This document shows positions 1 through 17,475 of a DNA stretch of 64,000 bases, in pieces. Location of the stretch: the IMG/VR virus record IMGVR_UViG_3300023174_009216; one strand, 5' to 3'. The stretch's first letter is position 1. Each line of letters starts with the position of its first letter. This DNA comes from a virus. Lineage: Duplodnaviria > Heunggongvirae > Uroviricota > Caudoviricetes. Both the position numbers and the translations under genes were made by a program. The notes beneath the pieces are model-generated. The model saw only the letters and a list, made by a program, of their open reading frames with translations, searched no databases and was not told the DNA's origin.

Positions 1-142
1 GTAGGATACACTCCGCTCGGATGGTGATTCCCCGATTTCTCTTTATTCTCATACCAATTCTTGAATCCCAATACTTTCATTTATTTAGTTTTATATACCT
101 ATCTATCCTGGAATTTTTTCTATCCTAATGGTATAATATCAG

Positions 143-562
143 ATGACAAAAAAAATCTGGATAAATGGAACATTTGATGTCTTACATATAGGACATCTCC
201 ATTTAATTAAAGAAGCTGCTAATCTTGGCAGTGTTAAAGTTGGGATAGATTCAGATCAAAGAGTGAGAGAATTAAAAGGAGAATCCAGACCTATCAATTC
301 AGAGAATGACAGAAGAGATTTTTTACTAGCAATCAAAGGAGTTGATTCAGTTGAGATTTTTAACACAGAGGATGAGCTAATAGATTTGATAAAATCATAT
401 TCACCTGATTGCTTTGTTATAGGGAATGATTACACAGAGAAAAAAATTATAGGAATAGAACATGTTAAAGAAATAGTATTTATACCAAGAATAAAAAACT
501 ATTCAAGCACAGAAATAATATCAAAAATAATATCTAATGAAAAAAGTATTGGTGATAGGTGA
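143..562 (+). CDS. Cytidylyltransferase-like nucleotidyltransferase, HldE/RfaE domain II-like (heptose 1-phosphate adenylyltransferase-like)
   Basis: 139 aa ORF. N-terminal GTFDVLHIGHLHLI matches the HxGH nucleotidyltransferase signature. Size fits stand-alone RfaE domain II. 26-nt overlap with the downstream kinase ORF. Confidence 0.65.
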   Translation: MTKKIWINGTFDVLHIGHLHLIKEAANLGSVKVGIDSDQRVRELKGESRPINSENDRRDFLLAIKGVDSVEIFNTEDELIDLIKSYSPDCFVIGNDYTEKKIIGIEHVKEIVFIPRIKNYSSTEIISKIISNEKSIGDR

Positions 563-1289
563 ATTTGGTATTGATAGATTTGTTTATGGAAATATAGAAA
601 GACTAAATCCTGAAGCACCCACACCTATTTTAAACATCAAAGAGATGAAGGAGAATTGGGGAATGGCAGGTAATGTCTACAAGAATCTAGAATCACTTAA
701 TAAATTTAATCTTGGATTTGTTTCCAATTATGAGCCGGCAATAAAAACAAGATATGTTGATTCTAAATCAAACTATATTCTTCTAAGAACAGATGTGAAT
801 GATAATATAGAAAGAATTGCAAATATTGATGAAGATTATATTTCAAAATTTGATGCTGTGGTAATATCAGATTACAATAAAGGTTATTTATTAGAGGATG
901 ATATAGTTAAAATAGCTGAAGCATCTAAGATGTCTTTTATGGACACTAAAAAGCCATTAGGAAATTGGTGCAAAGGAATTAACTGGATTAAGATAAACGA
1001 GAAAGAAGCACAGAATCCTAAACATCAGGAAGGATTTTTTTATCTTCTTAAAAAATCTCTTATAGTAACACTTGGCGGAGATGGAGCTTTATACAATGAT
1101 AAAAAATATCCAGCGGATAAAACAAATGTTATGGATGTTGTTGGTGCGGGGGATACATTTATATCAGCATTTGCATGCCATATAATGGAAGGAAATAGCG
1201 TTGATGAATCCATTATGTTTGCTAACAAGTGTGCTTCTGAAGCTGTAAAGAGAAGAGGTGTAACACTATTGAGCGAAGTGTTAAAATAA
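537..1289 (+). CDS. PfkB-family sugar kinase, HldE/RfaE domain I-like (heptose 7-phosphate kinase-like)
   Basis: N-terminal VLVIGEFGIDRFVYG..ERLNPEAPTPIL resembles the RfaE-I N-terminus. C-terminal DVVGAGDTF is the PfkB signature. Confidence 0.7.
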   Translation: MKKVLVIGEFGIDRFVYGNIERLNPEAPTPILNIKEMKENWGMAGNVYKNLESLNKFNLGFVSNYEPAIKTRYVDSKSNYILLRTDVNDNIERIANIDEDYISKFDAVVISDYNKGYLLEDDIVKIAEASKMSFMDTKKPLGNWCKGINWIKINEKEAQNPKHQEGFFYLLKKSLIVTLGGDGALYNDKKYPADKTNVMDVVGAGDTFISAFACHIMEGNSVDESIMFANKCASEAVKRRGVTLLSEVLK

Positions 1290-1293
1290 AAAA

Positions 1294-1311
1294 GGTCCAA
1301 TTTCTTGGACC
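1294..1311 (-). terminator. Hairpin GGTCCAA-TTTC-TTGGACC between convergent genes, with T-run on the minus strand
   Basis: Perfect 7-bp stem with 4-nt loop directly after the stops of 537..1289(+) and 1334..1900(-). A-rich on the plus strand upstream, so a T-run follows on the minus strand. Confidence 0.55.
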
Positions 1312-1333
1312 CTTAAAAATGTATCATTACCGG

Positions 1334-1900
1334 TTAGAATAATCCCATATCGGAAACTAATTTTAGATATTCTTGATCCTTAAGACTTGGTGGTACAACT
1401 CTAAGGTTTCTAACAGACATAGGATCTTCTTCCAGCTTTCTTCTAATTATTTCAACGCCACCCTCGACATTCAATAATTCAGTCTTTGTAATAAAGCTAT
1501 CTTTGTATAATAGCTTCTTTATTAGATATTCCAATCTGTTTTCATAATCCTTCATGTCCAGACAAGCCTTATACCATTTAGGATCATGATCCCATTGTAT
1601 ATTAATTCTATAAGCCTTTCCTGAAGGAGCATCTTCCCAGATAGCTCCGTTAAGATTCATACGAATAGACATAGAGAATGAAGGATGCATAAATCTTAGA
1701 TTCCCCTGTCTTTCACCTTGGAAGGTTTCACCCTCAAGCCTTGGCTCGCCTTTAGCATTAACCTCGGTGTATCCTAAAGATATTAAGTCCGCATAAAGAG
1801 CTGATTCTCTTAGAGGTGTGAAATCTGGTATTGGGCATTTTCTAGGTTTTCTTACCTCATTTACCCCAGACCATTTCTTAAAATTTTTAACATTTCCCAT
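1334..1900 (-). CDS. hypothetical protein
   Basis: 188 aa ORF. No recognisable motif. Confidence 0.5.
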   Translation of the reverse strand: MGNVKNFKKWSGVNEVRKPRKCPIPDFTPLRESALYADLISLGYTEVNAKGEPRLEGETFQGERQGNLRFMHPSFSMSIRMNLNGAIWEDAPSGKAYRINIQWDHDPKWYKACLDMKDYENRLEYLIKKLLYKDSFITKTELLNVEGGVEIIRRKLEEDPMSVRNLRVVPPSLKDQEYLKLVSDMGLF

Positions 1901-1948
1901 TTTTTAATCTTGTTTCCTTATATATCAACGTAGCTAAAAGAAACCTTT

Positions 1949-2983
1949 TTAATCTCTGCTTCCAAATCCAATACCGCCTGATTTATTTCCTTTATTCTTA
2001 GGCTTATTCTTCATTTCTCTAAGATGTGTCAATGTTTCATCATAGGGATTGCCAAGAACCAATGTTGATATAACTAATTCTTTTAAATGAGCTAAGCTAA
2101 ATCCTTCAGAGTCCCTTATCCACTTATTGATATCTATATTCTCTAATTCCTCTTTGGGAAGCTTAGATTCCAAATATGCCCTTCTAATCTTAGAATCTGG
2201 TGGATCTATTCTATATCTTCTATCAAATCTTGATGGTCTGTTTGAAACTCTCTCTTCTAATTTTTCAGGATAATTTGTAGAGGCAAGATATATGACACCC
2301 TCTATTTGTTTTATTCCGTCCAATATGTTTAGAAGCTTTGATGTGGTATATTTGTCTTCGCCTGTTAAAGCATCAAGATCTTCCATTACCACAATTAGCG
2401 GTCTTGATGGTTCTATCTTTCTAACTGTTTGTATAAATTCATCAAAAAGTTCAACCTGATAATGATCCTTTATATTAATAACAATTCCGTCCATCTTCTC
2501 TATTACATGTTTCACACATATCTGTATGATGCCACTTTTACCTCCTCCTGGATCACCGTGTAATAAAATTCCCCTCTTATGTATGTAGTTGTATTTTTTA
2601 AATATTGATCTTCCTTCCCAGAATTTTTTGATGTCAGAAATAATATCCTTTATCTCAGGAGATGGTAGAATAAAAAGCTCTTCTGAAACAACATTGATTC
2701 TTTGTAGGTGCATTCCCTTTTGTGAATCATTTTTTATTTCATATAGGCCGGATGGCAATATATCCACCGTCTTATTGATGGGGAGAAATGCACCATTATC
2801 TAAAGTTGCCCATTGTGAATATCCGCCTTCCTTGTTTTTAACATTATTCTCATGTCCATTAGGAAAATACTCATAGTCGTCTTCAATTAGGTCCCTGATC
2901 ATTTTATTTCTCATTATATCTTGTTTAATTAAGTTTATATTTTTAGTCCTAGCCATTATTTTTTGTATTTTTAATCCCACCAA
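1949..2983 (-). CDS. AAA-family ATPase (classic AAA with SRH motif)
   Basis: Walker A GILLHGDPGGGKSG, Walker B LIVVMEDLD, and second-region-of-homology ASTNYPEKLEERVSNRPSRFDRRYRIDPPD. Confidence 0.8.
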   Translation of the reverse strand: MVGLKIQKIMARTKNINLIKQDIMRNKMIRDLIEDDYEYFPNGHENNVKNKEGGYSQWATLDNGAFLPINKTVDILPSGLYEIKNDSQKGMHLQRINVVSEELFILPSPEIKDIISDIKKFWEGRSIFKKYNYIHKRGILLHGDPGGGKSGIIQICVKHVIEKMDGIVINIKDHYQVELFDEFIQTVRKIEPSRPLIVVMEDLDALTGEDKYTTSKLLNILDGIKQIEGVIYLASTNYPEKLEERVSNRPSRFDRRYRIDPPDSKIRRAYLESKLPKEELENIDINKWIRDSEGFSLAHLKELVISTLVLGNPYDETLTHLREMKNKPKNKGNKSGGIGFGSRD

Positions 2984-3573
2984 TGTTTCATTCCGCTTCC
3001 ATCATACCATTCATCCCATTCCTTTCTTTTATGATTAAATTTTTTCATATCCTGTCCTCTGAATATTTCCCAAAGCTCATTCCATTCTTCCTCCTCTATT
3101 TCTCTGGCTCTTTGATAGACCTTTCTGTTATGTGATTTTTCTTCAGGAGTGTCATTATCAACTAATCTGAAAGATCCTGGTCTATCCTCACATTCTTCAA
3201 ATTCAATTGGATTCATGTAAAGTCCGCCTAATTCTTTCTCTGCCATTTCTATATAGGAATCCTCATTCATTCTATTTAGAATCTCAGCAGCTCTTTTCAT
3301 CTTAGCTACCTTTTTCATTCTGGGAACTGGGACCTCGTTTCCTCCATGTTCAAATTTTTCGGACATTATTTCCAAGGATTCCCTCACGAAATTTAATGAA
3401 TATCCATAGCTGTACCATTTAAATTCCCAAAGTGATTTTCTAAACAACCAGATATTCTTAAAGAATCTAGGAATATCATATCTTAATGTTTCCCATAACT
3501 TATAAGGCCATCTAGATTGCCACTTCAATCTCTTTATGCTTTTAAAAAAACTATTCGAAATACTTACTTTCAT
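2971..3573 (-). CDS. hypothetical protein
   Basis: 200 aa ORF overlapping the upstream stop by 13 nt (operon-like). Confidence 0.5.
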   Translation of the reverse strand: MKVSISNSFFKSIKRLKWQSRWPYKLWETLRYDIPRFFKNIWLFRKSLWEFKWYSYGYSLNFVRESLEIMSEKFEHGGNEVPVPRMKKVAKMKRAAEILNRMNEDSYIEMAEKELGGLYMNPIEFEECEDRPGSFRLVDNDTPEEKSHNRKVYQRAREIEEEEWNELWEIFRGQDMKKFNHKRKEWDEWYDGSGMKHWWD

Positions 3574-3577
3574 CTTC

Positions 3578-3946
3578 CTATTTTAATTTTTCCCAAAGTT
3601 CTACTAGACTATATTTAGACATAGCAGATTGTATAATTTGTGACTTTAGGCTTTCCTCTAATGTTTTTGGTTCTTCTACGTTTACAACCACCCCAGTTGA
3701 TACTGGTTCAGGAACCGCATCATGATATTTGCTATTCTTACATGATTCAAGTTCTGCATAAAGTTCCCTTATCTCTCTATTTGCCATTCCTAACATGCCC
3801 ATAAAGGATGCTATGATCTCTTTAGATTTATGCTTGAAATCCTCTGAATTAGGAAAGTTACTAGAGAGTGAAAGAAATGTGTTCGAATCTCTTTCTACTT
3901 TTTTTTGTAATTTTAGATACTCTTCGGATACGTTGTATTTTGTCAT
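3578..3946 (-). CDS. hypothetical protein
   Basis: 122 aa ORF. Confidence 0.45.
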   Translation of the reverse strand: MTKYNVSEEYLKLQKKVERDSNTFLSLSSNFPNSEDFKHKSKEIIASFMGMLGMANREIRELYAELESCKNSKYHDAVPEPVSTGVVVNVEEPKTLEESLKSQIIQSAMSKYSLVELWEKLK

Positions 3947-4082
3947 AATTTAATTTTTATTTAAGATCATAGCATTTGCCCCAACATAAATTTCAAATCA
4001 TTAATTATAAATTGTTGGATCAAATTCAGATATTCGCCGGAGTAGATTATAGAAGCTAGAGATTCACCAGTAGGTGTATTAA

Positions 4083-4292
4083 TTAAAAATTTCCTTTGCC
4101 GAAAACTTTTTCCATCCATATCGTGTCTTCCTTGGTCATTTGAACAACCTTCCATGTTTCATCGTATCGCATACGCATTTTTATACCATTGTTTACAACA
4201 GTGGTATCAGTTTCTGGTTTCTTCTTTTGGGTTTTCTTCTTTTGGGCATTAGCATTAAAGCTAAGAAATAAAAGTGCAATTAGAATTTTCAT
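4083..4292 (-). CDS. small secreted protein (N-terminal signal peptide)
   Basis: MKILIALLFLSFNANAQ signal-peptide-like N-terminus. 69 aa. Confidence 0.4.
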   Translation of the reverse strand: MKILIALLFLSFNANAQKKKTQKKKPETDTTVVNNGIKMRMRYDETWKVVQMTKEDTIWMEKVFGKGNF

Positions 4293-4295
4293 AAG

Positions 4296-4658
4296 TTATC
4301 TTTTAGGAAGTTTATACTTGTCTACTATTTTATATAGGTTATCTAGGCTTAAATAAATGAAAAGATATATGCTTGGACTGGTAAACGTGCTACTTCCTAT
4401 TTCCCCTTTTTCCTCAGCCCAATCCGCACGATGATTATATTCATATCGATCTATCACAACATTATGTGTGTTGAGAGATATATGGTTTTCTATATAATCT
4501 TCAGCAGATAATTCTTCGTGTGTTTCCCTTATCATACCTTTTAGAATATCAACATGATACGAATCGGAGAGAACTAAGGCATCTTTAAAAAGCTGTTTCA
4601 ATACTTCTATGTTCTCGATATGAGACAGATGAAAAAAACCGTTCCAATTATTTCTCAT
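4296..4658 (-). CDS. hypothetical protein
   Basis: 120 aa ORF. Confidence 0.45.
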   Translation of the reverse strand: MRNNWNGFFHLSHIENIEVLKQLFKDALVLSDSYHVDILKGMIRETHEELSAEDYIENHISLNTHNVVIDRYEYNHRADWAEEKGEIGSSTFTSPSIYLFIYLSLDNLYKIVDKYKLPKR

Positions 4659-5736
4659 TCAATAAAAATTTATTAGATATTGCTTTAAAACTAATTGATC
4701 TATCATATGAGCGTACAACTACACCCTCTCTATCAAATTCTGGGTTTAATACTGATTTACTGTCTGCATATTTAATCATATCTTCAATTGTATCGGGTAA
4801 AAGAAATTCAGTTTCAATAATAGGAACAGTTTCCGCTACTATTGCATGTTGTATAGTTGCAAGAAACATCGGTAAACCATAATAACTCCTGCTATCAATA
4901 TCAAACACATTAAAGAACTTAACAGTATGACCTTTTATTTTATATGGATTTCCCTGAATTCCTTCTCCGATAAGTTCGCCCTGCAGAGAAATATTTTTTC
5001 CATATGCTTCTAGTTTTTCTTTAATCCTCATCTCCCTTGCAACCTTCCAGAATGTATTACCTTCGGTTTCAAGTAAATCTAGGTTTCTTGAACAAACCCC
5101 AAACTCCCCATCTTTCCAATAGAAAGTAGCGGAGCTTCCATCTAGTTTTTCAGTCACATAGAACTGATGCTCTGAAGATATCTTATATTCGGCATACTCT
5201 TTAGATAAATTCTGAACTCTCTCCTCGTCTGTCTTTCTTAAGAAACTTGGGAAGCTGCCTTTAACTTTACCTGCAAGTTCTGCAGGGATTGGAGGCTCAT
5301 ATTTAACGATATGTAACCAGTCTGTAACATCTGTTCCCTCTTCAATCACCAATGCATCATCATAAGGACCAAGTTGTAATTGATCCCCCCAAGGTTGTTG
5401 GCTGATGCCTATTTTCATTTCTTCCCCTTTTTCTAATACTGAAAGTGGCAATATTAAGCCTTGTGAAATTTGTCCCCTCAAGCGGATTGTTTTAAGTCTG
5501 AATCCTTCTTGATCCCCCATTTTCTTATAAGAACTTTTTCTTAAAAATTCAAACTCTGGTTCAACAGGTAAAAAAGAGTCAATTTCACAATAGACTACTA
5601 GATCTCCAATTTCGTGTCCTACATTTTTTGCTACTACTACTTTCCAGCCATCTACAATAGCTAGATCAATAGAATCTGCGCCTTCTATAGGTTGGATATC
5701 AGAGATCCTCCTAAGGGTAGCTAATTTTCTTTCCAT
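4648..5736 (-). CDS. ATP-dependent RNA ligase-like nucleotidyltransferase
   Basis: Candidate motif I TEKLDGSSATF (KxDG lysine adenylylation motif) around residue 195, preceded by an N-terminal domain as in Rnl5/DraRnl-type ligases. Family assignment tentative. Confidence 0.5.
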   Translation of the reverse strand: MERKLATLRRISDIQPIEGADSIDLAIVDGWKVVVAKNVGHEIGDLVVYCEIDSFLPVEPEFEFLRKSSYKKMGDQEGFRLKTIRLRGQISQGLILPLSVLEKGEEMKIGISQQPWGDQLQLGPYDDALVIEEGTDVTDWLHIVKYEPPIPAELAGKVKGSFPSFLRKTDEERVQNLSKEYAEYKISSEHQFYVTEKLDGSSATFYWKDGEFGVCSRNLDLLETEGNTFWKVAREMRIKEKLEAYGKNISLQGELIGEGIQGNPYKIKGHTVKFFNVFDIDSRSYYGLPMFLATIQHAIVAETVPIIETEFLLPDTIEDMIKYADSKSVLNPEFDREGVVVRSYDRSISFKAISNKFLLNEK

Positions 5737-5737
5737 T

Positions 5738-5920
5738 TTATTTTTCTTTTGCTTTTTCTAATAAATCATTGAATGCATTCAAGTAGCATTCATTCTCTGG
5801 CATCCCTGAATGATACAGGTCTGTTGCAAGTTTATCAAGATCGTCCGAACTGATGTTTACTAGAGATAGTTCTTCGACCATCCTATTATACTCGGATTCT
5901 TGTATTACCCAACGTTCCAT
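5738..5920 (-). CDS. hypothetical small protein
   Basis: 60 aa ORF abutting the next gene. Confidence 0.35.
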   Translation of the reverse strand: MERWVIQESEYNRMVEELSLVNISSDDLDKLATDLYHSGMPENECYLNAFNDLLEKAKEK

Positions 5921-6327
5921 TAAATTCTAGATTTAAACTCGTTAATAATGTTGTTAGTGCCTACCGGGTTCATCGAATGAACAAAGATTATAGGCAAATC
6001 TTTTCCTTCTGTTTCATAAAATTCTCTCATCCAGCGTGCACAGTCTAATCCAGTTTTCTCTTTATAGTTCTGAGAATCTTGATACTCTTTGGATTTTTCA
6101 TAATCGTCCCAATATTCAGATGGAGTATAATGCTCGTCAGCAAGATCATGATCAAATGAAACGTGTGAGATCTCATTTATGTGCTTAGAAATTGCATCGA
6201 CAAATTCTTTATAGTCTCTTACAACTAGCCATTCTTCCAAATAGATGGGATTTTTGCTACCTATTCTCTGATGCATGTAAGGTATGCAATGTTCTGGATT
6301 GCGGAAATCGTCTAAAAATATTTTCAT
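5920..6327 (-). CDS. hypothetical protein
   Basis: 135 aa ORF. Confidence 0.45.
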   Translation of the reverse strand: MKIFLDDFRNPEHCIPYMHQRIGSKNPIYLEEWLVVRDYKEFVDAISKHINEISHVSFDHDLADEHYTPSEYWDDYEKSKEYQDSQNYKEKTGLDCARWMREFYETEGKDLPIIFVHSMNPVGTNNIINEFKSRI

Positions 6328-6383
6328 AATTATTTCTTTAGATCCAAATATAAGGGATCTTTGTGGGAATTAAAAATGAAAAA

Positions 6384-7559
6384 TTAACACTGGAATTTAA
6401 GTGACCAACGCGTTTGTCCAACTGGTCCAGTTACATTTATAATCAGATCATTAACTTTTTCTTTTTTATCTAAAGAGATCCTCCAATCAACCCCTTTCTC
6501 CTTGTCAAAATTCTTAACTTGATCCTTATCGAGAATATAAGGAACTATATCCTTGTTTTTATTGAACATTTTTTTATCCTGAGGATTTAATTTTTTATCA
6601 GGAAATGCATATTTGAAATCATTAGGATCTGATAAAGTACCGGACTTAGCCTCGTCCAAAATCCTTTCGGCTTCTTTTGCATCTAGCTCTTTGTATTTAA
6701 TATCTTTAAAGTACCAAGGTTTTTCTTTTTCTTTATAAACATTTCCTATAAGCGTTCCTAATGCCAATCGATAATACTCATTAGGAACACCAAGAAATCC
6801 CGTAGATTTTTTTTCTCCGTTATAATCGTATATAAACATATCAGGGACATCCACTGGATTAACTTGTATAACTATTTTACCTTCCCCGTCAGGATATACA
6901 AATTTATATTCTTCACTTAAAAAATCTGTTTCAACACCTGCAACTCCCCCTTTCTCGTCACGAAAATCTTCCTGTGTGCACGTCATTCCTTCAGGAATAA
7001 GATTTTTTATACCTTTAGATTTTGTCTCGCCCTCCGCCTTCAAAACAAATCTTACAAATTGCTCTTTCTTATATTTTTCATCATCTGGTTTATCCACACC
7101 TTTTGTGTAAGGTGTTTCTCCTATAATATAATTGACATCGATTTTTGGATCGTTGGTAAAAAGTTTTTGAGCCTTATATTCATCCAAGATTTTTCTTAGG
7201 ATTGTTCTAACAGTCTCTCCCCTTTTAGAGGATAATACACCTGGTTTTAATTCAGTTCTCTCTTCGGCCTCATTATCGAAGTTTGTAACCTTTGATTCCC
7301 CTGCCTGTACAGCAATAGAGACTGTATTATTTATATACTTCTTTAAATAATCAGTTATTGGTGCTATCTGGTCCCTTAGTGTTTTTTCTAATTCTGGATT
7401 TTTTTCAGCACTCCACATACCCTTGTCAAACTTAAACTCAAAAGGAATTGTTTGCGCCTCAGCCTTAGTTGTGGTTTCTGTTGCTCCTGTTGCACCTGCT
7501 GCTCCTTCTCCTGTTGCACCAGCTGCTTCAAATAATTTAAATGTCTTAAGATATCTCAT
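6384..7559 (-). CDS. putative capsid-targeted (CTS-like N-terminus) protein
   Basis: N-terminus MRYLKTFKLFE|AAGATGEGAAGATGATETTT shares the MKxIKxFExF + (L/I/F)xE signature with six other ORFs in the window. Gly/Ala/Thr linker follows. Confidence 0.55.
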   Translation of the reverse strand: MRYLKTFKLFEAAGATGEGAAGATGATETTTKAEAQTIPFEFKFDKGMWSAEKNPELEKTLRDQIAPITDYLKKYINNTVSIAVQAGESKVTNFDNEAEERTELKPGVLSSKRGETVRTILRKILDEYKAQKLFTNDPKIDVNYIIGETPYTKGVDKPDDEKYKKEQFVRFVLKAEGETKSKGIKNLIPEGMTCTQEDFRDEKGGVAGVETDFLSEEYKFVYPDGEGKIVIQVNPVDVPDMFIYDYNGEKKSTGFLGVPNEYYRLALGTLIGNVYKEKEKPWYFKDIKYKELDAKEAERILDEAKSGTLSDPNDFKYAFPDKKLNPQDKKMFNKNKDIVPYILDKDQVKNFDKEKGVDWRISLDKKEKVNDLIINVTGPVGQTRWSLKFQC

Positions 7560-7586
7560 TTTTTATGTGATTTATGTATATATCAA

Positions 7587-8045
7587 TTACTTTACCAGCA
7601 TGTCTGCTGCATATGTCATCACAGGGGAGTTTCCTTTATGCCTCACTTTATATCCCATCCCTGTTACAATTCCCACAGCAGTTGCTAGGGCTTGATTAGA
7701 TTTATATTTTGGATCTGGATTAATATCTATATCAATCCATGTTGCAACCAAACTAAGTTCGTTTTTAAGGACCTCTGCAACCTCAACAGATTGCCAAACC
7801 TCTGTTAGCAATCTATTTACACTATCTCTCTCCCTTTTAGTGGTGAATCTAGAATAAAGAACATGAGCTCCTTTCCCTGGTCTATACAGACCAACAACTA
7901 TTGCATAAATTGTTTCTTTATCCTTATTTTGTGAATCGCATCCTATTAGAATTTCTGTTTCTGGATGTTCTTGTAAATAGTCCCTGATGTAAGGAACTAG
8001 TTCGATGTCTTTCTTCTCTGACAGAGTTTTAAATACTTTTTTCAT
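7587..8045 (-). CDS. hypothetical protein
   Basis: 152 aa ORF. No confident motif. Confidence 0.45.
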   Translation of the reverse strand: MKKVFKTLSEKKDIELVPYIRDYLQEHPETEILIGCDSQNKDKETIYAIVVGLYRPGKGAHVLYSRFTTKRERDSVNRLLTEVWQSVEVAEVLKNELSLVATWIDIDINPDPKYKSNQALATAVGIVTGMGYKVRHKGNSPVMTYAADMLVK

Positions 8046-8176
8046 AGTCCTTTCTTTTATATATTGTTTAAATTTTATTAAATTAGTTAGGTTTAAATTT
8101 TGTTCTCATTTTCCTAACGTTGATTTACTACACTGTGGAAAAAACCTGGAATATATAATCGGAATCTTAAACCCGT

Positions 8177-8872
8177 ATGAAAACTATAACCATTGTAATA
8201 CCCTGTAAAAATGAAGGATATCTAGTTATAGACACATTAAAATTTCTTATCAATCAATCCATATCTTTTAAAATTATAATTGCAGACTCATCCGATGAAG
8301 AAAGCAGTATACTTCTTCTTAGAAAGTATCAAAAGATTTATTCCGAAAGAATCCAAATAATACCTGGAGGATTACCTGCAATAGCAAGAAATAACGGGGC
8401 AAAGCTAGCCGAAAGCGATTATCTTCTTTTTTTAGATGCAGACATACATATTTATGATAAACATCTGGTTGAGGAATGCTTAAATATAATATCCAAAAAA
8501 GATTATGATCTTGTCACATGTAAAATGAAAACATTAACAGGAGAACATAATTGGGTTTATAGAATATTTGATTTCTTCCAATGGCTAAGTTCTTTAAGCA
8601 AGCCTTTTGCTTTAGGTGGCTTTATGCTATTTAAAACAGAGACATTTAGAAAATTAAACGGATTCAATGAGAAAGACAAGATTGCTGAGGATTATCATCT
8701 TAGTTCGAAGATTAATCCCAGAAAATTTAAGATCCTTGATTTATATGTACATACTCCGAATAGAAGATTTTCTAAGAAGGGCGTGTATTATATGATTAAA
8801 CTAGCATGGAAAAGCTGGATCAATCGTAATAATGATGAATTTTTCCAAAAAGATTATAACTACTGGTCATGA
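8177..8872 (+). CDS. family 2 glycosyltransferase
   Basis: IVIPCKNEG N-terminal GT-A motif and FLDADI DxD motif. Confidence 0.65.
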   Translation: MKTITIVIPCKNEGYLVIDTLKFLINQSISFKIIIADSSDEESSILLLRKYQKIYSERIQIIPGGLPAIARNNGAKLAESDYLLFLDADIHIYDKHLVEECLNIISKKDYDLVTCKMKTLTGEHNWVYRIFDFFQWLSSLSKPFALGGFMLFKTETFRKLNGFNEKDKIAEDYHLSSKINPRKFKILDLYVHTPNRRFSKKGVYYMIKLAWKSWINRNNDEFFQKDYNYWS

Positions 8873-8963
8873 TAAAAAGAAGTAAGGTTAATATACCATT
8901 TCAAAAAATAGTATTGCTAACTCTAGCTGTACTTATTCTATTAATAGAAATAGCTATTAACAT

Positions 8964-9710
8964 ATGAAATCAGATTATAAAGCAATCATAGTTTCAGATT
9001 TACATCTTGGAACTAAAAACTCACAAGCTAAAGAGTTTATAAACTTCTTAGAGAATCATTCCACTGATCTATTGATTCTTAATGGCGACATCATAGATGG
9101 ATGGGCACTGAATAGAGGATCCAAATGGAAAAAGTCTCACACTAAAGTTATTTCTAAATTACTAAAGATCTCAAATAAAACTAAAATAATTTGGATCAGA
9201 GGCAATCATGATGAATTCATATCTGAATTTATAGGTTCAAGATTCGGAAACATAGAAATAAGAGAGGATTATGTACTAGAACTATACGAATGGTATAATG
9301 ACAAATACAATCCCAAACATTATTATGTTTTCCATGGCGATGTGATCGATGTTTTTATTACAAAATATAAATGGCTATCTAAAATAGGGTCTATGGGATA
9401 CGATCTAGCTCTATGGGTAAACAGATGGTATAATAAATACAGATTATGGAGAGGACTTCCATATCAATCAATCTCTCAAAAAATAAAATCAAAGGTCAAG
9501 ACTGCAACTAACTATATCAATGACTTTGAAAGTGCAGCTGTTAAAATGGCCAAGAAAAAAAATTGTCATGGAGCAATCTGTGGACACATTCACAATCCAA
9601 TTGATTTGTATATTGAAGATGGTCATTACCTTAATTCAGGCGACTGGATAGAAAATAGAACTGCTATTTTCCTAGACCATTCAAATAACTTTAGTATAAA
9701 GGAATTTTAG
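8964..9710 (+). CDS. calcineurin-like metallophosphoesterase (LpxH-like)
   Basis: Motifs SDLHLG, GDIIDGW, GNHD and GHIH in the canonical order for a metallophosphoesterase. Confidence 0.6.
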   Translation: MKSDYKAIIVSDLHLGTKNSQAKEFINFLENHSTDLLILNGDIIDGWALNRGSKWKKSHTKVISKLLKISNKTKIIWIRGNHDEFISEFIGSRFGNIEIREDYVLELYEWYNDKYNPKHYYVFHGDVIDVFITKYKWLSKIGSMGYDLALWVNRWYNKYRLWRGLPYQSISQKIKSKVKTATNYINDFESAAVKMAKKKNCHGAICGHIHNPIDLYIEDGHYLNSGDWIENRTAIFLDHSNNFSIKEF

Positions 9711-9910
9711 TTACACTCTTCTTTATTCTCATTCTTATTCTGAAAAAATTCACAAGTGTGTCTTCTGCTAGGAACCATTTTATAATCACTTTTTTCGTTT
9801 CCTGGTTTAACTAAAGTGCATCTTAGTCCTTGCCCTAGTGCGATTAACCAAGCTAGGTGTTTACAGTTGTAGCAAATCTTTTCTGATGGATCTATTTTAT
9901 CTTCTTTCAA
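9707..9910 (-). CDS. small Cys-rich protein
   Basis: 67 aa ORF with CxxC...C...C pattern. Confidence 0.35.
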   Translation of the reverse strand: MKEDKIDPSEKICYNCKHLAWLIALGQGLRCTLVKPGNEKSDYKMVPSRRHTCEFFQNKNENKEECN

Positions 9911-9922
9911 TTTTTATGTTTT

Positions 9923-10930
9923 TTATAAACCGAATCTTGATTTATCAGCTGTCCAGTTAGTGTCTATTCCTGATATTCCAAGATCTTTATTGTAAATACG
10001 AACTATACCTAAATCTCCTCCCCAATAATTGGGGTTGTCCCATCTTCTCATTAGACGTATTCCACCCCCAGAAGAAGATGGGAGAGAGCCACCAGTTTGG
10101 GTTGTACTGATTAATGTATTATTTAAATATGTCTTAATCATCTGGCTGGAATCAACTGTTAAAACAATTTGATACCAATTTCCTGGAGTTAAATTAAATC
10201 CTGGTGATTGATGAAATCCGTTATTATAATATCCACCAGCGAATCCCCCTATTGATCCTATAACATAATTTATAACACCGTTAGCAAATACCTCAGATAT
10301 CAAACATGGTGTATCTGCTGTATTAGTACCGCTCCATCTATGCCAAATTTCAACGGTAAAAACAGGAAGCGAAGGCAAGCTTGTGTTACACTGTGCATAT
10401 TGTTCCGTGCTTGGATTGAAAGTGAAATACTTTTCCCCTGTGCCTGTATATGAAGGACCATTATAGAAATTAAATTCCTTACTTCCTATTGAATCTATCC
10501 AAGGACCAGATCCTGCATATGTTTTAGCATTAAGATTTAAAACAAGTCCTTCTGTTACATTCGATATCGTCGAAAAGCTTGTCCAGTATCCATTTGTGTT
10601 TAGCCATTCTTTGGCATTGACCCCGTTTACAAAACTCTGAGAGAATTTTTGATTAACTAATGAAAGAAATGAGACTTCAGTTTTTTCATCAGATCTATAA
10701 AATCCAACCGATGCGGTAACATTAGGTATAGGAGTGGGCTGACTATTATCTGGAACTGATTCACCTATAACGTAACCAAGATTTTCATCTGGTCCATTCC
10801 ACCAGGTCAAGCCTGTTGCATCAAATCCATCAGATGGAAATCCAACAGCTAAGTCCCCGAATTGTTCTGTTCCCGCTATTGGTCCTCCTGTGTTGTATGC
10901 TAACGGAGTTGCTTTTATTATTGGAGGCAT
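9923..10930 (-). CDS. putative virion structural/fibre protein
   Basis: 335 aa, Gly/Ser/Thr/Asn/Trp-rich. Begins MPPIIKA like the other MP-initiated fibre ORFs. Confidence 0.45.
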   Translation of the reverse strand: MPPIIKATPLAYNTGGPIAGTEQFGDLAVGFPSDGFDATGLTWWNGPDENLGYVIGESVPDNSQPTPIPNVTASVGFYRSDEKTEVSFLSLVNQKFSQSFVNGVNAKEWLNTNGYWTSFSTISNVTEGLVLNLNAKTYAGSGPWIDSIGSKEFNFYNGPSYTGTGEKYFTFNPSTEQYAQCNTSLPSLPVFTVEIWHRWSGTNTADTPCLISEVFANGVINYVIGSIGGFAGGYYNNGFHQSPGFNLTPGNWYQIVLTVDSSQMIKTYLNNTLISTTQTGGSLPSSSGGGIRLMRRWDNPNYWGGDLGIVRIYNKDLGISGIDTNWTADKSRFGL

Positions 10931-10970
10931 ATTGTAATTCTTTTGAATTTTATATATCCAAAAATATAGG

Positions 10971-11042
10971 TAGTCCCACCTAGACTCGAACTAGGATATC
11001 AGGTTTAGAAAACCTGCGTTCTATCCCTTGAACTATGGGACC
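10971..11042 (-). tRNA. tRNA-Arg(TCT)
   Basis: Hand-folded cloverleaf. Acceptor GGTCCCA/TGGGACT, D stem GTTC/GAAC, anticodon stem CAGGT/ACCTG with loop TTTCTAA, T arm CCTAG-TTCGAGT-CTAGG. Confidence 0.75.
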
Positions 11043-11138
11043 ATTTCGACATGGAGTAGTCACGGCCACCTCTAATCCTTCCATGTCTGTTTGTAACCGA
11101 AGCAAAATGTGGCTCGACTCTAGTTACAATCTTTTTAT

Positions 11139-11795
11139 TTATCTTCTTTTTAAAAATTTGTTTCTTAAAACTGGAATTAAAAAAGCCATTAAGGTAGCTA
11201 ACGAGAATACTAGATCCACACCCTCTGTGTTTAATCCTTTTGTCCAATAGCTTGCTACCAGCCTTATACCTAATACTCCTATCACCCAATAAGCTATTTT
11301 TTCTAAAAGTGGAACTTCCTCTAGGACTTTTACGAATGCAGTCGTGGCAAATCTCATTGCAAATATACCAATGAATACACCGCCACAGATCAACCAAAGA
11401 TTATCAGTGAAAGCCACAGAAGCAAATACATTATCAATACTAAATACCAGATCCATAATCTCTATCATCACCACAGTTGACCAGAATGTGTTTAGGAAAG
11501 GTATTTTTATAGGTTTAACGTGTCCGTTCTTCTGCTCTTTAAAAAGTGAGCTATAAGCTAAATAAACAAGGTATAAACCTCCTAGAACTTTAAGCCATAG
11601 TATATTGATCAGAACAGAAGCAAACACTAGTGCCAAGCCTCTAAAGACGTATGCACCAATGATTCCATAAGTTAGAGATTTCTTTTGCTGGCTCTTAGGT
11701 AACTGCTTTACCATTGTTGCTAAGACAGCTGCATTGTCTATACTTAGGACTATTTCTAGTAATAAGATATTTAGAAAGATTATTATCTGTGTCAT
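11139..11795 (-). CDS. TerC-family integral membrane protein
   Basis: Multiple TM segments with repeated SIDNAAVLA / SIDNVFA motifs typical of TerC. Confidence 0.7.
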   Translation of the reverse strand: MTQIIIFLNILLLEIVLSIDNAAVLATMVKQLPKSQQKKSLTYGIIGAYVFRGLALVFASVLINILWLKVLGGLYLVYLAYSSLFKEQKNGHVKPIKIPFLNTFWSTVVMIEIMDLVFSIDNVFASVAFTDNLWLICGGVFIGIFAMRFATTAFVKVLEEVPLLEKIAYWVIGVLGIRLVASYWTKGLNTEGVDLVFSLATLMAFLIPVLRNKFLKRR

Positions 11796-12079
11796 AAGGA
11801 TTTATTGATTATAGAATTTTTTCCATTAAAAAATTCGATCATGGAAATTTTTCCACTAAAACAAGATTTTTGGAGAATTTTTTCCATTATACTATTTTTC
11901 TTCTATTGCTTCCCAGGGAAACTCTGTAAGCAAAAGAATTTTATGCATTATCTCTTTATCTATAGCCATTCTCAATTCCTCCACCAAAAAATTAGTTATT
12001 TTACGTTCTGCCTTCTTTTTTTTCAGATATATTCTTTCTCTTCTTTTCATATTGTTTTTTATCTAACCTAAGAATTATG

Positions 12080-12152
12080 TGGACCCAACAGGATTCGAAC
12101 CTGTGACCTCAAAATTATGAGTTTTTTGCTCTACCAGCTGAGCTATGGGTCC
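12080..12152 (-). tRNA. tRNA-Met or Ile2 (CAT)
   Basis: Acceptor GGACCCA/TGGGTCC, D arm GCTC-AGCTGGTA-GAGC, anticodon loop CTCATAA, T arm ACAGG-TTCGAAT-CCTGT. Confidence 0.8.
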
Positions 12153-12163
12153 AGTTATATTTG

Positions 12164-12242
12164 TAGCCAGGACAGGATTCGAACCTGTAATACCGGTTTG
12201 ACCACTCGACGTGGTTGCGTCTATCCATTCCGCCACCTGGCT
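12164..12242 (-). tRNA. tRNA-like gene with Leu-type D arm and atypical anticodon arm (possible TCG anticodon)
   Basis: Acceptor AGCCAGG/CCTGGCT, D arm GCGG-AATGGATAGA-CGC, T arm ACAGG-TTCGAAT-CCTGT. Anticodon region ACCAC-GTCGA-GTGGT gives a 5-nt loop or a 4-bp stem with loop CGTCGAG (G33). 79 nt. Confidence 0.45.
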
Positions 12243-12362
12243 ATTTTTCTTTACTTCTTTTTACCAGTATTAACGGCAATCACAAATAATGATAATGTAC
12301 AGAATACAGTACATACAGGATAAAGTATATGCGTTAAAAAATTTTCCATATTATTTTATTTT

Positions 12363-12458
12363 TCATATTTCTTTTTTATCTTTTCTATGTATTTTTATTC
12401 TAACTCCGAAGAATGTAAAAAACACAATAACAAAAATAAATCCTATAATTAATTTCAT
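12363..12458 (-). CDS. small hydrophobic peptide (31 aa)
   Basis: ATG preceded by the conserved upstream motif AAAACAATAGAAAGTT. Encodes MKLIIGFIFVIVFFTFFGVRIKIHRKDKKEI. Below the ORF-track length cutoff. Confidence 0.3.
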   Translation of the reverse strand: MKLIIGFIFVIVFFTFFGVRIKIHRKDKKEI

Positions 12459-12464
12459 AACTTT

Positions 12465-12674
12465 CTATTGTTTTACGTAGTCCATTGTTTCTCTCATTTT
12501 TGCAATCAATGCTTCCATGCTTTCAGTATTCAAATATAATCTACCATTGTGATAGTCGTCAGCACTTTCTTTAAATTCTATAACGATACCATCGAATTCA
12601 GGTGTAGGCTGTATTCTAATGTCCTGATCGTTTTCTGTTGTGATTTCTGTTTTTATCCAGACTTTACTTTTCAT
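12465..12674 (-). CDS. hypothetical protein
   Basis: 69 aa acidic ORF inside the tRNA region. Confidence 0.4.
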   Translation of the reverse strand: MKSKVWIKTEITTENDQDIRIQPTPEFDGIVIEFKESADDYHNGRLYLNTESMEALIAKMRETMDYVKQ

Positions 12675-12758
12675 ACTATTTAAGTTTTAAGATAGTTTAT
12701 TTTTTCTCGTATAATATTACTTATAGTAACAAAATACGAGAATTTTTAAACTAAAAAG

Positions 12759-12832
12759 CGGATCGGACGGGACTCGAACCCGTGACCTCTGCCGTGACAG
12801 GGCAGCATTCTAACCAACTGAACTACCGATCC
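12759..12832 (-). tRNA. tRNA-Asp(GTC)
   Basis: Acceptor GGATCGG/CCGATCC, D arm GTTC-AGTTGGTTA-GAAT, anticodon stem CTGCC/GGCAG with loop CTGTCAC, T arm ACGGG-TTCGAGT-CCCGT. Confidence 0.85.
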
Positions 12833-12838
12833 TAGCGG

Positions 12839-12911
12839 TACCATGTACGGGGGTCGAACCCGTAATCTTCTCCGTGAAAGGGAGACGACTTAACCATTTG
12901 TCCAACACGGC
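12839..12911 (-). tRNA. tRNA-Glu(TTC)
   Basis: Acceptor GCCGTGT/ACATGGT (two G-U pairs), anticodon stem TCTCC/GGAGA with loop CTTTCAC, T arm ACGGG-TTCGACC-CCCGT. CC encoded. Confidence 0.75.
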
Positions 12912-12997
12912 ATTTTAATTCCTTATATCAAAGAACTCGTTATTTTTATTAACGAAGCAAATATAAAGTTTACGAGGGAAAAGAAAAAATGCTTTTT

Positions 12998-13669
12998 TTA
13001 AATCACCTGTTCTCTGTTATCTATATGAAAAATAACACAGGTATAATATTCTATAAAATGTTCATTCCACAAATCCCATTTTATATTCACACCATTAAGG
13101 GAGAAAACTTCAAAATTTGGAAATTGAGGAAGTATATTATCTCTGAAGTTTCTAAATCTTTCTTTATCTACTTCTGATAAATGCCATTCTCCGACAATCT
13201 TTTTAACTTTTGATTTTATGAATTCCATATTCTCTTCACAAAATATATCATATTCTCCGCCTTCACAATCTGTCTTTAAAAAATCTATTCTTTCTATACC
13301 ATATAATTTTAAAAAAGTAGAGAATTTAATGGTTTCTATTAGTTCTCCTCCTGGTCCCTCATAGTAAACACCAGGCATAAATTTTTGACCATCAGAATTT
13401 GAGATTGCCTTGCTTATGTGTGTAACTGGATGGCCCATTGTATTTTTAACCAGGAGGGGCAAAATAGTCCTTGATGGTTCAAAACAGAAAAAATGTTTAG
13501 CACCCTTATCTAAATTATTATAAGTAAAAGGTCCCCAACTAGCTCCGATATCAACAACTAGATCTCCTGGCTCAACTTCAAAAAACCTAGAATATTGGTT
13601 TATGTCATCAATATATTGATTCACATATTGTTCTTGATCACCTCCCCATTGAAAATTAGTAAAATCCAT
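12998..13669 (-). CDS. SAM-dependent methyltransferase, FkbM family
   Basis: LVVDIGASWGPFT glycine-rich SAM-binding motif followed by FCFEPS, matching the FkbM pattern. 223 aa. Confidence 0.6.
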   Translation of the reverse strand: MDFTNFQWGGDQEQYVNQYIDDINQYSRFFEVEPGDLVVDIGASWGPFTYNNLDKGAKHFFCFEPSRTILPLLVKNTMGHPVTHISKAISNSDGQKFMPGVYYEGPGGELIETIKFSTFLKLYGIERIDFLKTDCEGGEYDIFCEENMEFIKSKVKKIVGEWHLSEVDKERFRNFRDNILPQFPNFEVFSLNGVNIKWDLWNEHFIEYYTCVIFHIDNREQVI

Positions 13670-13837: not shown

Positions 13838-13843
13838 AAATTG

Positions 13844-14249: not shown

Positions 14250-14254
14250 TAATG

Positions 14255-16728: not shown

Positions 16729-16823
16729 ACGGTACTGCCCCGTTTTCCACGAGTTAAAAGCTCGTTACTTCACTTTAAAGCTTAGAGGGATTTTTATACT
16801 CCCTTCCTGCTTTTAGTGAAGGG
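16729..16823. promoter_or_regulatory. cluster of four hairpins upstream of the tRNA array; the last two are mutually exclusive
   Basis: ACGG-TACTGCC-CCGT (16729..16743), ACGAG-TTAAAAG-CTCGT (16749..16765), AGGGA-TTTTTATAC-TCCCT (16786..16804), CCTTC-CTGCTTTTAGT-GAAGG (16801..16823). The last two share the CCCTTCC segment. Confidence 0.4.
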
Positions 16824-16987
16824 AGCTTATGTCTTTCGTTTTCGTTTCATATCTTCTTTACTTTTTTGTAATAGCTTCATAAAATCTTCAATCTCTTCTG
16901 ATCCAATTTTATACTCTTTGGATTTTGATTTTTTTAAATCATCGAATGTTGAATATTTAGTTAGCTTTTTCATTTTCATTTTTTATG

Positions 16988-17059
16988 TGGTGATGGGGAA
17001 TTCCGAGATCCCAACGCCCAGTTCTTCAAACTGGCGCTCTACCTTTGAGCTACATCACC
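16988..17059 (-). tRNA. tRNA-Phe(GAA) with non-canonical T loop
   Basis: Acceptor GGTGATG/CATCACC, D arm GCTC-AAAGGTA-GAGC, anticodon stem CCAGT/ACTGG with loop TTGAAGA. T arm GGGAT-CTCGGAA-TTCCC (C54, one mismatch). Confidence 0.65.
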
Positions 17060-17061
17060 AT

Positions 17062-17097
17062 AAAAAAACCCTGAATCTTTATGATCCAGGGTTTTTT
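17062..17097. terminator. bidirectional terminator-like hairpin (A-run, ACCCTG...CAGGGT, T-run)
   Basis: 6-bp GC-containing stem at 17068..17073 / 17087..17092 with 13-nt loop. Flanked by AAAAAAA and TTTTTT. Confidence 0.55.
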
Positions 17098-17475
17098 AAT
17101 ATTTTTAGTTATTTCTTTTTTAACTTATATCTATATCATATATTAACCCTGGATTTTCTTTCGGCTTACTTTGATCAATCGTCATTGTATTCACTGAGCA
17201 ATAGCCTGTCGATAAGAGAATTTCATTCCCTCTAAACCAACGATTTGTATGTATTGCCAAGTTTTTCATTATCGAAAATTTCTGAGTTTGTTTTTTATAT
17301 ATCTTTTCTTCTTAGAAGTTCCAAAGATAAATCAAATTTTTTTAGAAAAAAAATATTTTTTGTTTCTTTTTTAAATTATCCGAAATTGAGGACTGTGAGA
17401 ATTACACCGTCTCGAAGGAATAAAATAAAAAACCCAATCTTTAAAGATTGGGCTATGCTAGGTTCTATATGTTTT

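Follow-up and report, generated by a model that had tools for sequence, protein, structure and literature searches.

The 'lipopolysaccharide (LPS) genes' of marine cyanomyoviruses were first described in 2005 by Sullivan et al. (PMC1079782), and among these the T4-GC 304/305/307/308 genes are found together in three phages (Sullivan et al.; PMC1079782, PMC3037559). More recently, commentaries on Tang et al. 2024 (Science 385:678; PMC11573728, PMC11461863) report that viral isomerase, kinase, and nucleotidyltransferase enzymes make ADP-heptose in vitro, that one-organism enzyme combinations, covering at least one organism per kingdom, all yielded this product, and that a phosphatase homologue was not detected in viruses. 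Here, we analyze a 64,000-nucleotide stretch (referred to as the window) of the tailed-phage record IMGVR_UViG_3300023174_009216, which carries on its plus strand a nucleotidyltransferase (NT) gene followed by an overlapping sugar kinase gene, and further downstream the genes for a family-2 glycosyltransferase (GT2) and a metallophosphoesterase (Table 1). A preliminary description had regarded these four as one possible cell-envelope or LPS-precursor module. Instead, we consider the chances somewhat better than even that a phage nucleoside diphosphate (NDP)-heptose pathway has the NT and kinase at its core, and that the GT2 and phosphoesterase, together with a small peptide encoded between them, make up a separate and more widely conserved phage trio.

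The nucleotidyltransferase and the kinase

All four open reading frames (ORFs) are present on the plus strand with the boundaries first proposed, and the domain suggested for each scores above its Pfam gathering threshold. For the first pair, these are the CTP_transf_like domain in the NT (PF01467, 1.6e-17) and the PfkB domain in the kinase (PF00294, 4.4e-20), as the hidden Markov models named in the preliminary description had led one to expect. Moreover, the NT does precede the kinase, in reverse of the domain order in the fused HldE, and the two are separate ORFs that overlap by 26 nt.

Among the NCBIfam models, the NT is matched best by rfaE_dom_II (TIGR02199) with 105.6 bits, while TagD reaches about half of this (53.6 bits), and its residues 3–130 align with positions 2–129 of the 131 in phrog_7878 (2.3e-35). 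Its closest match in the protein data bank (PDB) is HldC from Burkholderia pseudomallei (PDB ID: 5X9Q; 7.9e-15), with which it has in common the KGxxRPxN pattern, seen in the NT as an invariant K45-G46-x-x-R49-P50-x-N52 segment. The nucleotide-binding HxGH motif of the cytidylyltransferase fold is found as H15-I-G17-H18, and here H15, G17, and H18 are invariant in eight phage NTs. Identity with the cyanophage T4-GC 304 proteins lies between 38 and 47%, and at the C-terminal end the NT shows R116-I-K-N-Y-S-S-T where the cyanophage copies have R-V-G-G-Y-S-S-T. For heptose nucleotidyltransferases, the C-terminal motif is given in one of the commentaries as (F/L)XXGXSTT, with an STTR5 type that is linked with promiscuity toward nucleoside triphosphates (PMC11573728). 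The sequence in the NT is a recognizable variant of this motif, having SST for STT, Asn for Gly, and Tyr rather than Arg at position 5, and the NT is therefore not of the promiscuous STTR5 type. Judging from its sequence, the NT is an HldC / HldE-domain-II-like nucleotidyltransferase, this being its predicted activity.

For the kinase, the best NCBIfam model is rfaE_dom_I (TIGR02198) with 132.7 bits, compared with 57.2 bits for ribokinase, and the match runs in two stretches that skip model positions 65–102. Its residues 2–246 also align with positions 3–237 of the 246 in phrog_8133 (1.4e-76). The N154-x-x-E157 (NxxE) and G203-A204-G205-D206 (GAGD) motifs, the latter with the anion hole and catalytic Asp of the PfkB fold, are both invariant in 31 homologues with 43–72% identity. 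A phmmer search of PDB sequences gave HldA from Burkholderia cenocepacia (PDB ID: 4E84) as the best match (1.3e-14), the two proteins sharing an N-terminal LV(I/V)GD..DR..G...R..PEAP.P segment, of which the HldA-specific R-x-x-PEAP-x-P part is invariant in the phage kinase family. The AlphaFold2 (AF2) model of the kinase has a mean predicted local distance difference test (pLDDT) score of 92.3, and in a Foldseek search with this model the first seven ranks were all taken by HldA chains (E 7e-21 to 8e-19, 23% identity, template modelling (TM) score 0.67–0.74), with ribokinases following at E ~1e-15. Since HldA thus comes ahead of the ribokinases by both sequence and structure, the kinase does not cluster with generic ribokinases, and the earlier view of it as a heptose-7-phosphate-kinase type holds up. 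Its reading as a compact HldA / HldE-domain-I-like PfkB kinase, with heptose 7-phosphate as the predicted substrate, has survived the tests run.

The compact kinase family is a large one, as 3164 homologues were found at E≤1e-10, with lengths of 208–267 aa among the 120 listed. In a library clustered at 50% identity, there were 354 kinase clusters at E≤1e-30, and all 150 representatives listed had E<1e-39. Four longer homologues (P0364, P0392, P0422, and P0369) were considered as natural fusions and set aside as uninformative, as their N-terminal extensions are without a Pfam domain and one of the four resembles an HNH endonuclease read-through. Two of them, P0364 and P0392, have in common an N-terminal domain of ~240 aa without a Pfam match ahead of the compact kinase, for which a partner function is possible.

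Relatives of the pair and the remaining pathway steps

A tblastn search with the kinase returned 36 phage records with 34–46% identity, these being T4-like cyanomyoviruses, marine single-cell viral contigs, and a few uncultured phages; no record came from a source other than marine plankton. The split NT–kinase cassette is already known in phages, and occurs here in a new lineage. In fact, the Prochlorococcus phage P-SSM2 has the same layout as the window, with NT gene PSSM2_309 followed by the overlapping kinase gene PSSM2_310, so that the split and order-swapped arrangement is not the unusual feature it was first taken to be. The kinase gene leads in S-SM2, P-TIM68, and three of the fetched loci (L005–L007), while P-SSM2, L004, L012, L015, and the window have the NT gene in front; as gene order varies in this way among phages, the order swap carries no special meaning. 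The cyanophage T4-GC 304/305 cassette consists of the same two families at full length (PHROG 7878/8133), with a kinase of ~250 aa and an NT of ~140 aa. In contrast to the window pair, which forms an island by itself on the minority strand, in a huge phage of another lineage with probably a Bacteroidota host, the cyanophage pair is set in large sugar clusters (HAD, cupin, epimerases, transketolase, and transferases).

Turning to the close relatives, L012 (69% kinase identity) and L015 (63%) both keep the NT–kinase pair in the same syntenic slot. The pair diverges like its flanking genes (57–77%), and the ratio of non-synonymous to synonymous substitution (dN/dS) is 0.08–0.27. From the shared slot, the flank-like divergence, and the dN/dS values, it follows that the pair is a stable resident under selection and not a recent import. 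A kinase identical to that in the window (P0001) is found on contigs of up to 118 kb. In L012, the pair has upstream of it genes for a PAS histidine kinase and a response regulator (3984–5997), and the window has a gene for a cREC_REC-domain protein at 5920–6327 on the minus strand.

In P-SSM2, the genes 3' of the kinase are annotated as 'phosphoheptose isomerase', 'cysteine dioxygenase', and 'nucleotide-sugar epimerase', and from their sequences the first two of these cyanophage annotations look wrong. The 'phosphoheptose isomerase' has a DxDGT motif, faint HAD-family matches, and no SIS match, and on this account is most likely the pathway phosphatase. Genes with this annotation lie at 8722–9066 in L003 (P-SSM2 PSSM2_311), 8275–8613 in L002, and 11981–12292 in L001. 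The 'cysteine dioxygenase' gene at 9047–9403 in L003 (PSSM2_312) encodes a small cupin with weak sugar-isomerase matches. Directly upstream of the NT in L015 is a 127-aa cupin gene whose product is 42–45% identical to this cyanophage cupin and weakly matches the mannose-6-phosphate and lyxose isomerase families. Among the loci fetched, genes for a cupin and/or a HAD protein adjoin the pair in P-SSM2, P-TIM68, S-SM2, L004–L007, L009, and L015. As a reasonable inference from these sequences, a full phage pathway would consist of a cupin (isomerase or epimerase), a PfkB kinase, a HAD phosphatase, and an NT, of which the window lineage would keep only the two central enzymes at this locus.

The search for further pathway genes covered ~84 kb, made up of the window and ~20 kb of flanks, with most of the mid-sized proteins scanned. 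Within this, the window, the 9.6 kb on its left side, and the 10 kb on its right side yielded no GmhA, GmhB, HldD, GT9 heptosyltransferase, cupin, or HAD protein. Nothing sugar-related at all was seen in the 9.6 kb to the left (parent region L010), and when the proteins of the cyanophage clusters (HAD, cupin, epimerase, transketolase, aldolase, and transferase, along with those of the pair) served as tblastn queries, only the NT and kinase were matched in the window. The GmhA and GmhB homologues that the preliminary description proposed to look for elsewhere in the genome were thus not met with in the window and its flanks, and a lack of other heptose-pathway genes is true of this region and untrue of the relatives, in which a cupin and a HAD protein adjoin the pair.

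Put together, the steps of the pathway that we favor would be as follows. The compact PfkB kinase would phosphorylate O-1 of heptose 7-phosphate, and once the 7-phosphate is removed, the HxGH-containing NT would join the sugar 1-phosphate to a nucleoside monophosphate to give an ADP-heptose-type nucleotide sugar. The isomerase and 7-phosphatase steps would lie outside of the cassette, being carried out by host GmhA/GmhB or by unlinked phage genes; in the relatives, the small cupin and HAD phosphatase beside the pair would probably supply them. In terms of known systems, the window pair is like HldE and the Burkholderia HldA and HldC in having the HldA N-terminal signature, NxxE, GAGD, HxGH, KGxxRPxN, and a C-terminal S(S/T)T. 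Compared with the bifunctional HldE, the two activities are encoded by separate genes in reversed order, the kinase is ~60 residues shorter, and there is no gmhA, gmhB, or hldD nearby. As in the accounts given of the viral enzymes of Tang et al. 2024, there is a stand-alone kinase and a predicted heptose NT, whereas the isomerase described for those was not found in the window.

Several points weigh against the NDP-heptose pathway. To our knowledge, no phage copy of these genes has been linked to a glycan by experiment. Both proteins fall far below the equivalog cut-offs of their best models, the kinase with 132.7 bits against 345 for TIGR02198 and the NT with 105.6 bits against 181.5 for TIGR02199. 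With 250 aa, against 299–313 resolved residues in HldA chains, the kinase is ~60 residues shorter, and its substrate could therefore be a different sugar phosphate. Added to these are the missing pathway genes just described and a host assignment that is indirect (see below). Lastly, Sullivan et al. 2010, who proposed cell-surface alteration during pseudolysogeny for the cyanophage genes, left 'stuffer' DNA open (PMC3037559).

Of the alternatives, the one that fares best is that the kinase and NT carry out a two-step salvage of a sugar other than heptose, in which an anomeric kinase makes a sugar 1-phosphate that is then converted to an NDP-sugar. We judge this unlikely; it would need neither isomerase nor phosphatase, which would account for a minimal two-gene cassette. 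The sub-threshold scores of both enzymes, the trimming of the kinase by ~60 residues relative to HldA, and the lack of GmhA or GmhB within about 84 kb are all in keeping with it, as is the fact that the isomerase-like partner in the relatives is a cupin and not an SIS-type GmhA. Phage arabinose pathways, moreover, follow the same logic of isomerase, kinase, HAD protein, and NT with different folds (PMC13326640). On the other hand, the closest characterized enzymes are HldA and HldC or HldE domain II, ahead of the ribokinases and TagD, and the R-x-x-PEAP-x-P segment specific to HldA is invariant in the phage family. The HAD phosphatase beside the pair in many relatives also implies that the intermediate is a bisphosphate, like that of the heptose route, and viral homologues are reported in a commentary to make ADP-heptose (PMC11573728).

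The glycosyltransferase, the small peptide, and the phosphoesterase

The second plus-strand pair turned out to be independent of the first. The two are 6.9 kb apart, with eleven minus-strand ORFs of at least 60 aa in between. In every context examined (L016, L017, L018/L019, and L102), the GT2 gene is directly upstream of the phosphoesterase gene, and no NT or kinase gene lies within 8–10 kb of them. These contexts include a 211 kb contig (L016), a 276 kb contig with a terminase (L017), and a 308 kb contig on which the pair is beside gp32, DnaB, and ribonucleotide reductase genes (L102). Conversely, the NT and kinase occur without GT2 or phosphoesterase in the flanks fetched for L015, L004–L009, and the cyanophages. 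Hence, the two pairs are independent units, in our reading each vertically inherited, and the proposal of a single four-gene module is not supported. For all four genes, dN/dS relative to the relatives is 0.06–0.27, with dS near saturation for distant pairs, and all four are under purifying selection. A difference in conservation between the pairs was looked at as a signal and discarded, as the higher identity of GT2 (98%) and phosphoesterase (94%) to L012, compared with 68–69% for the NT and kinase, reflects a regional mosaic; the RNA ligase, cREC, and RNaseH-like neighbors are also 91–96% identical to L012.

The GT2 contains a Glycos_transf_2 domain (PF00535, 9.9e-17, 61.8 bits against a threshold of 23.3), and in its translation D87-A-D89 (DxD) and 'AEDYHL' motifs are seen. 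Of the NCBIfam models, it scores highest with TIGR04283 (72 bits, cut-off 182), and no specific subfamily reaches its cut-off. We found 1131 homologues, the best 120 having 58–97% identity and lying on phage contigs of up to 308 kb, and none of them was found in isolated, named phages. The phosphoesterase has about 8000 homologues, with 70–97% identity among the best 120, and in isolated phages is found only in Pelagibacter phage Mosig (40%) and S-SRM01 (28%). In bacteria, this GT2 was within 6 kb of a phosphoesterase homologue in none of 80 loci (37–46% identity, nearly all Bacteroidota), and the pairing is therefore specific to phages. The 32-codon ORF between the two genes encodes a product with a basic N-terminus and one hydrophobic helix. 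It is called in L010, L012, L016, and L102, with its architecture kept despite sequence divergence, and as it is absent in L017 and L018/L019, it is optional. In L012, an NDP-sugar C-methyltransferase-like gene (20577–20753) is directly 3' of the phosphoesterase gene.

As to whether the phosphoesterase is LpxH, as first suggested, the likeness is one of fold. Its Metallophos domain is clear (PF00149, 2.2e-14), and the best NCBIfam model is LpxH PRK05340, albeit with 51.3 bits against a cut-off of 134 (TIGR01854: 34.9 against 190); the Bacteroidota relatives are also under the LpxH cut-off (53–57 bits). All seven ligands of the dinuclear metal center (D12, H14, D42, N81, H124, H208, and H210) correspond to those of PaLpxH (D8, H10, D41, N79, H114, H195, and H197) and are invariant in 26 phage homologues. 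The AF2 model (pLDDT 81.9) has a four-helix insertion at residues 126–198 between core strands, predicted with a pLDDT of 61–79 and located where LpxH has its lipid-binding cap. In a Foldseek search, the top nine matches were LpxH (E 1e-10 to 4e-9, TM ~0.55, 17–18% identity). However, the phosphoesterase has G80-N81-H82-D83 (GNHD) where solved LpxH sequences show GNRD, and GNHD is found in all 26 phage homologues and in 75 of the 80 Bacteroidota/Rubritalea relatives. According to Okada et al. (PMC5016852), what separates LpxH from all other metallophosphoesterases is an Arg that stands, 'in all species of known sequence', where GNHD has its catalytic His; this residue (Arg80) holds the phosphate of lipid X through a bidentate salt bridge, and its mutation cripples the enzyme. 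With this defining Arg absent, the phosphoesterase is not filed as LpxH, and so the main support for a link to lipid A is gone.

From the sequence comparisons and the predicted model, we place the phosphoesterase in the broader LpxH/LpxH2-type branch and not with true LpxH. Like LpxH, it has the same core, the seven metal ligands, and a helical insertion in the same place, and it differs by His82 for Arg. It is also similar to LpxH2 as described, an enzyme thought to act on another substrate than LpxH; the aromatic share of the insertion (16% compared with 14% for the whole protein) is only marginally raised and was not used for this analogy. The phage enzyme, unlike its relatives at the 80 bacterial loci, is coupled to a GT2. 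A second metallophosphoesterase of 233 aa is encoded in the window at 29664–30365 on the minus strand, and may be glycan-related.

A bolder reading, which we regard as a rather doubtful one, is that the GT2, the membrane peptide, and the LpxH-fold phosphoesterase with its catalytic His are an undescribed phage system that may build or remodel a surface glycoconjugate during infection. If so, the trio may target a host lipid or sugar that is nucleotide-linked, the host probably being one of the Bacteroidota, with the phage supplying NDP-heptose and UDP-galactofuranose, and the glycoconjugate would serve superinfection exclusion, receptor masking, or virion decoration. Such a system would be present on thousands of uncultured large-phage contigs and never paired in bacteria.

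Use of the activated sugar, the phage, and its surroundings

Other genes of this phage bear on where the nucleotide sugar might go. A genuine UDP-galactopyranose mutase (Glf) is encoded at 3613–4704 in L103 (TIGR00031, 406 bits against a cut-off of 304), which is from the same phage, L103 and the window phage having an identical 453-aa protein and gene order in common, and the phage can thus make UDP-galactofuranose. Along with a 400-aa GT2 (L103 1380–2582), the Glf gene is beside ribonucleotide reductase genes, ~6–9 kb past the right edge of the window. Within the window are a second GT2 (20280–20819, minus strand, 179 aa) and an FkbM-type methyltransferase (12998–13669, minus strand). Because the phage encodes Glf, three further GT2-type transferases, and the FkbM methyltransferase, the product of the proposed NDP-heptose pathway would most likely feed the synthesis of a glycan on the host envelope or the virion. 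With several nucleotide-sugar activities in one phage, a conventional glycan of this kind is favored over DNA modification. Glycosylation of DNA or virion proteins, as raised in the preliminary description, is a possible use of the activated sugar for which no specific support was found.

That the nucleotide sugar serves hypermodification of the phage's own DNA, for instance through heptosylation of 5-hydroxymethylcytosine (5hmC) as a means of evading restriction, is in our estimation improbable. It does have precedents, as a reconstituted phage cluster (HAD/kinase, cytidylyltransferase, and GT-B) adds one or two heptoses to 5hmC (bioRxiv 10.1101/2023.12.21.572611), and steps by an isomerase, a kinase, a HAD protein, and an NT also make up arabinosyl-hydroxycytosine pathways (PMC13326640). 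Both the heptosyl-5hmC 'contig 53' and the arabinosyl-5-hydroxycytosine Afh pathway have, as in the window, a kinase and a cytidylyltransferase-type NT. However, their kinases are APH-like or protein-kinase-like (APH-like and not PfkB in the heptosyl-DNA cluster), and they are accompanied by a GT-B DNA transferase and an enzyme that hydroxymethylates or hydroxylates the base, neither of which was found here. In fact, no cytosine methyltransferase/TET pair, hydroxymethylase, or T4-type GT-B DNA glucosyltransferase was among the proteins scanned. In L017 and L018, a thymidylate-synthase-family gene is beside the GT2–phosphoesterase pair, and these genes, together with that in the window (40002–40970), were considered as hydroxymethylases and rejected; all score 182–314 bits against the curated ThyA cut-off of 108 and therefore look like ordinary ThyA. 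The co-encoded Glf points likewise to conventional glycans. As an observation apart, the match of the window gene (minus strand) begins at model position ~76–123, and a GIY-YIG endonuclease ORF (40912–41517, minus strand) overlaps its 5' end; the window thyA is probably split by an intron or a homing endonuclease.

Less probable again is the original notion of the four plus-strand genes as one envelope or LPS-precursor module, with the GT2 transferring ADP-heptose and an LpxH activity boosting the flow of lipid A precursor. All four are on the minority strand and keep the same positions in the close relative L012, and by family both pairs are glycan-related. Against this stand their spacing, the occurrence of each pair without the other, and the fact that known heptosyltransferases are of the GT9 or BAHT family and not GT2. 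The phosphoesterase, moreover, does not have the lipid-X-binding Arg by which LpxH is defined (PMC5016852). Finally, that the genes are functionless passengers, either decaying host DNA or the 'stuffer' raised by Sullivan et al. 2010 for the cyanophage clusters (PMC3037559), is scarcely tenable even with the pathway incomplete in the window, given intact ORFs, catalytic residues invariant in 31 kinases and eight NTs, dN/dS values of 0.06–0.27, synteny kept across diverged phages, and hundreds of compact-kinase clusters at 50% identity.

The features of the two plus-strand islands are collected in Table 1. As first claimed, the four genes are the only ones on the plus strand of the window, to which only the 32-codon ORF is to be added. 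The remaining plus-strand ORFs of at least 90 aa overlap minus-strand genes, except for one at 16816..17235 in a gap, which we rejected as a gene because of its low-complexity translation and its overlap with a minus-strand tRNA (16988..17059). A minus-strand gene starts at ~80 and continues past the left edge, leaving the NT and kinase as a two-gene plus-strand island, and the divergent intergenic region presumably holds the promoter of this cassette. A sigma-70 promoter scan gave 44 sites where 45.4 were expected, which is the background level. An upstream motif shared by both islands, CCTGGAAT, was rejected, as its five occurrences compare with 2.65 expected and were equalled in 10 of 100 shuffles. 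The hairpin at the convergent junction is a weakly supported candidate for a bidirectional terminator; it is called on the minus strand, and terminator-like sites number two in 10 kb against 4.2 expected. No riboswitch was detected near either island, as Rfam at gathering thresholds gave only tRNAs on 1–20000.

Table 1. Positions of the plus-strand genes and associated elements in the window.
Feature	Position	Strand	Description
Nucleotidyltransferase (NT)	143..562	+	139 aa; HldC / HldE-domain-II-like sugar-1-phosphate nucleotidyltransferase (predicted)
Kinase	537..1289	+	250 aa; compact HldA / HldE-domain-I-like PfkB sugar-phosphate kinase (predicted)
GT2	8177..8872	+	231 aa; soluble GT-A fold family-2 glycosyltransferase; first gene of the second plus-strand island
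Small peptide ORF	8869..8967	+	32 codons, MIKRSKVNIPFQKIVLLTLAVLILLIEIAINI; 4-nt overlap with each neighbor (GT2 and phosphoesterase)
Phosphoesterase	8964..9710	+	248 aa; metallophosphoesterase of the LpxH/LpxH2 (COG2908-type) branch (predicted), with helical insertion
Divergent intergenic region	81..142		Between the left minus-strand gene and the NT gene
Hairpin, 10-bp stem	1291..1314		Convergent junction, directly 3' of the kinase stop codon

With regard to the phage itself, megablast of window positions 1–12000 against phage records gave no match, so that the phage has no close sequenced relative in that set. Nearly all genes in the window are on the minus strand, including those for nicotinamide phosphoribosyltransferase, topoisomerase II, a split family-B DNA polymerase, and a collagen-like tail fiber. 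There are 23 tRNA genes in an array at 10969–17059, 22 of them found by ARAGORN and one more by Rfam; the latter (16988..17059, minus strand, 51.2 bits) is not among the ARAGORN predictions. The polymerase fragment is closest to those of uncultured huge phages of 460–735 kb and Prevotella phage Lak (36–44% identity). Shine–Dalgarno-like motifs are found upstream of six of the 64 window genes, below the random background of 17%, and the closest cellular relatives of the phosphoesterase are almost all Bacteroidota. Based on this polymerase kinship, the scarce Shine–Dalgarno motifs, and the cellular relatives of the phosphoesterase, the window probably belongs to a huge phage with a Bacteroidota host; in our reading, this phage is related to the T4 superfamily.

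A number of other genes in the window are of interest in their own right. The 250-aa product of the gene at 37286–38038 (minus strand) aligns almost end to end with the family of the CBASS inhibitor Acb3 (PF25187, 5.6e-51), and by this match the gene is an anti-defense gene in a huge phage. The nicotinamide phosphoribosyltransferase gene (21768–23273, minus strand; phrog_448, 1e-189) adjoins a gene for a divergent ribose-phosphate diphosphokinase-like protein (23278–24051, minus strand), and these would form a phage NAD-salvage pair with possibly a counter-defense role. The collagen-like tail fiber gene (54783–57293, minus strand, 836 aa) has in its place in L103 a 335-aa gene on the opposite strand (16817–17824), the difference being a strain-level swap. 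Genes for a TerC-family integral membrane protein (11139–11795, minus strand, 3.9e-49), situated amid the tRNA genes, and an SPFH/Band 7 protein (45437–46384, minus strand) are both membrane-associated accessory genes.

For the families concerned, the gene first thought to be LpxH-like is, by the defining residue of the LpxH family itself, not a lipid A enzyme, and belongs instead to a conserved phage pair. The wrong annotations in the cyanophages may mislead reconstructions of the pathway. We know of no established biological role for viral NDP-heptose, and any tractable phage carrying the cassette would help here. With the window, the heptose-activation cassette known from the marine cyanomyoviruses is now also seen in a huge-phage lineage whose hosts are probably Bacteroidota, and the window shows that the cassette can shrink to a kinase and a nucleotidyltransferase only.

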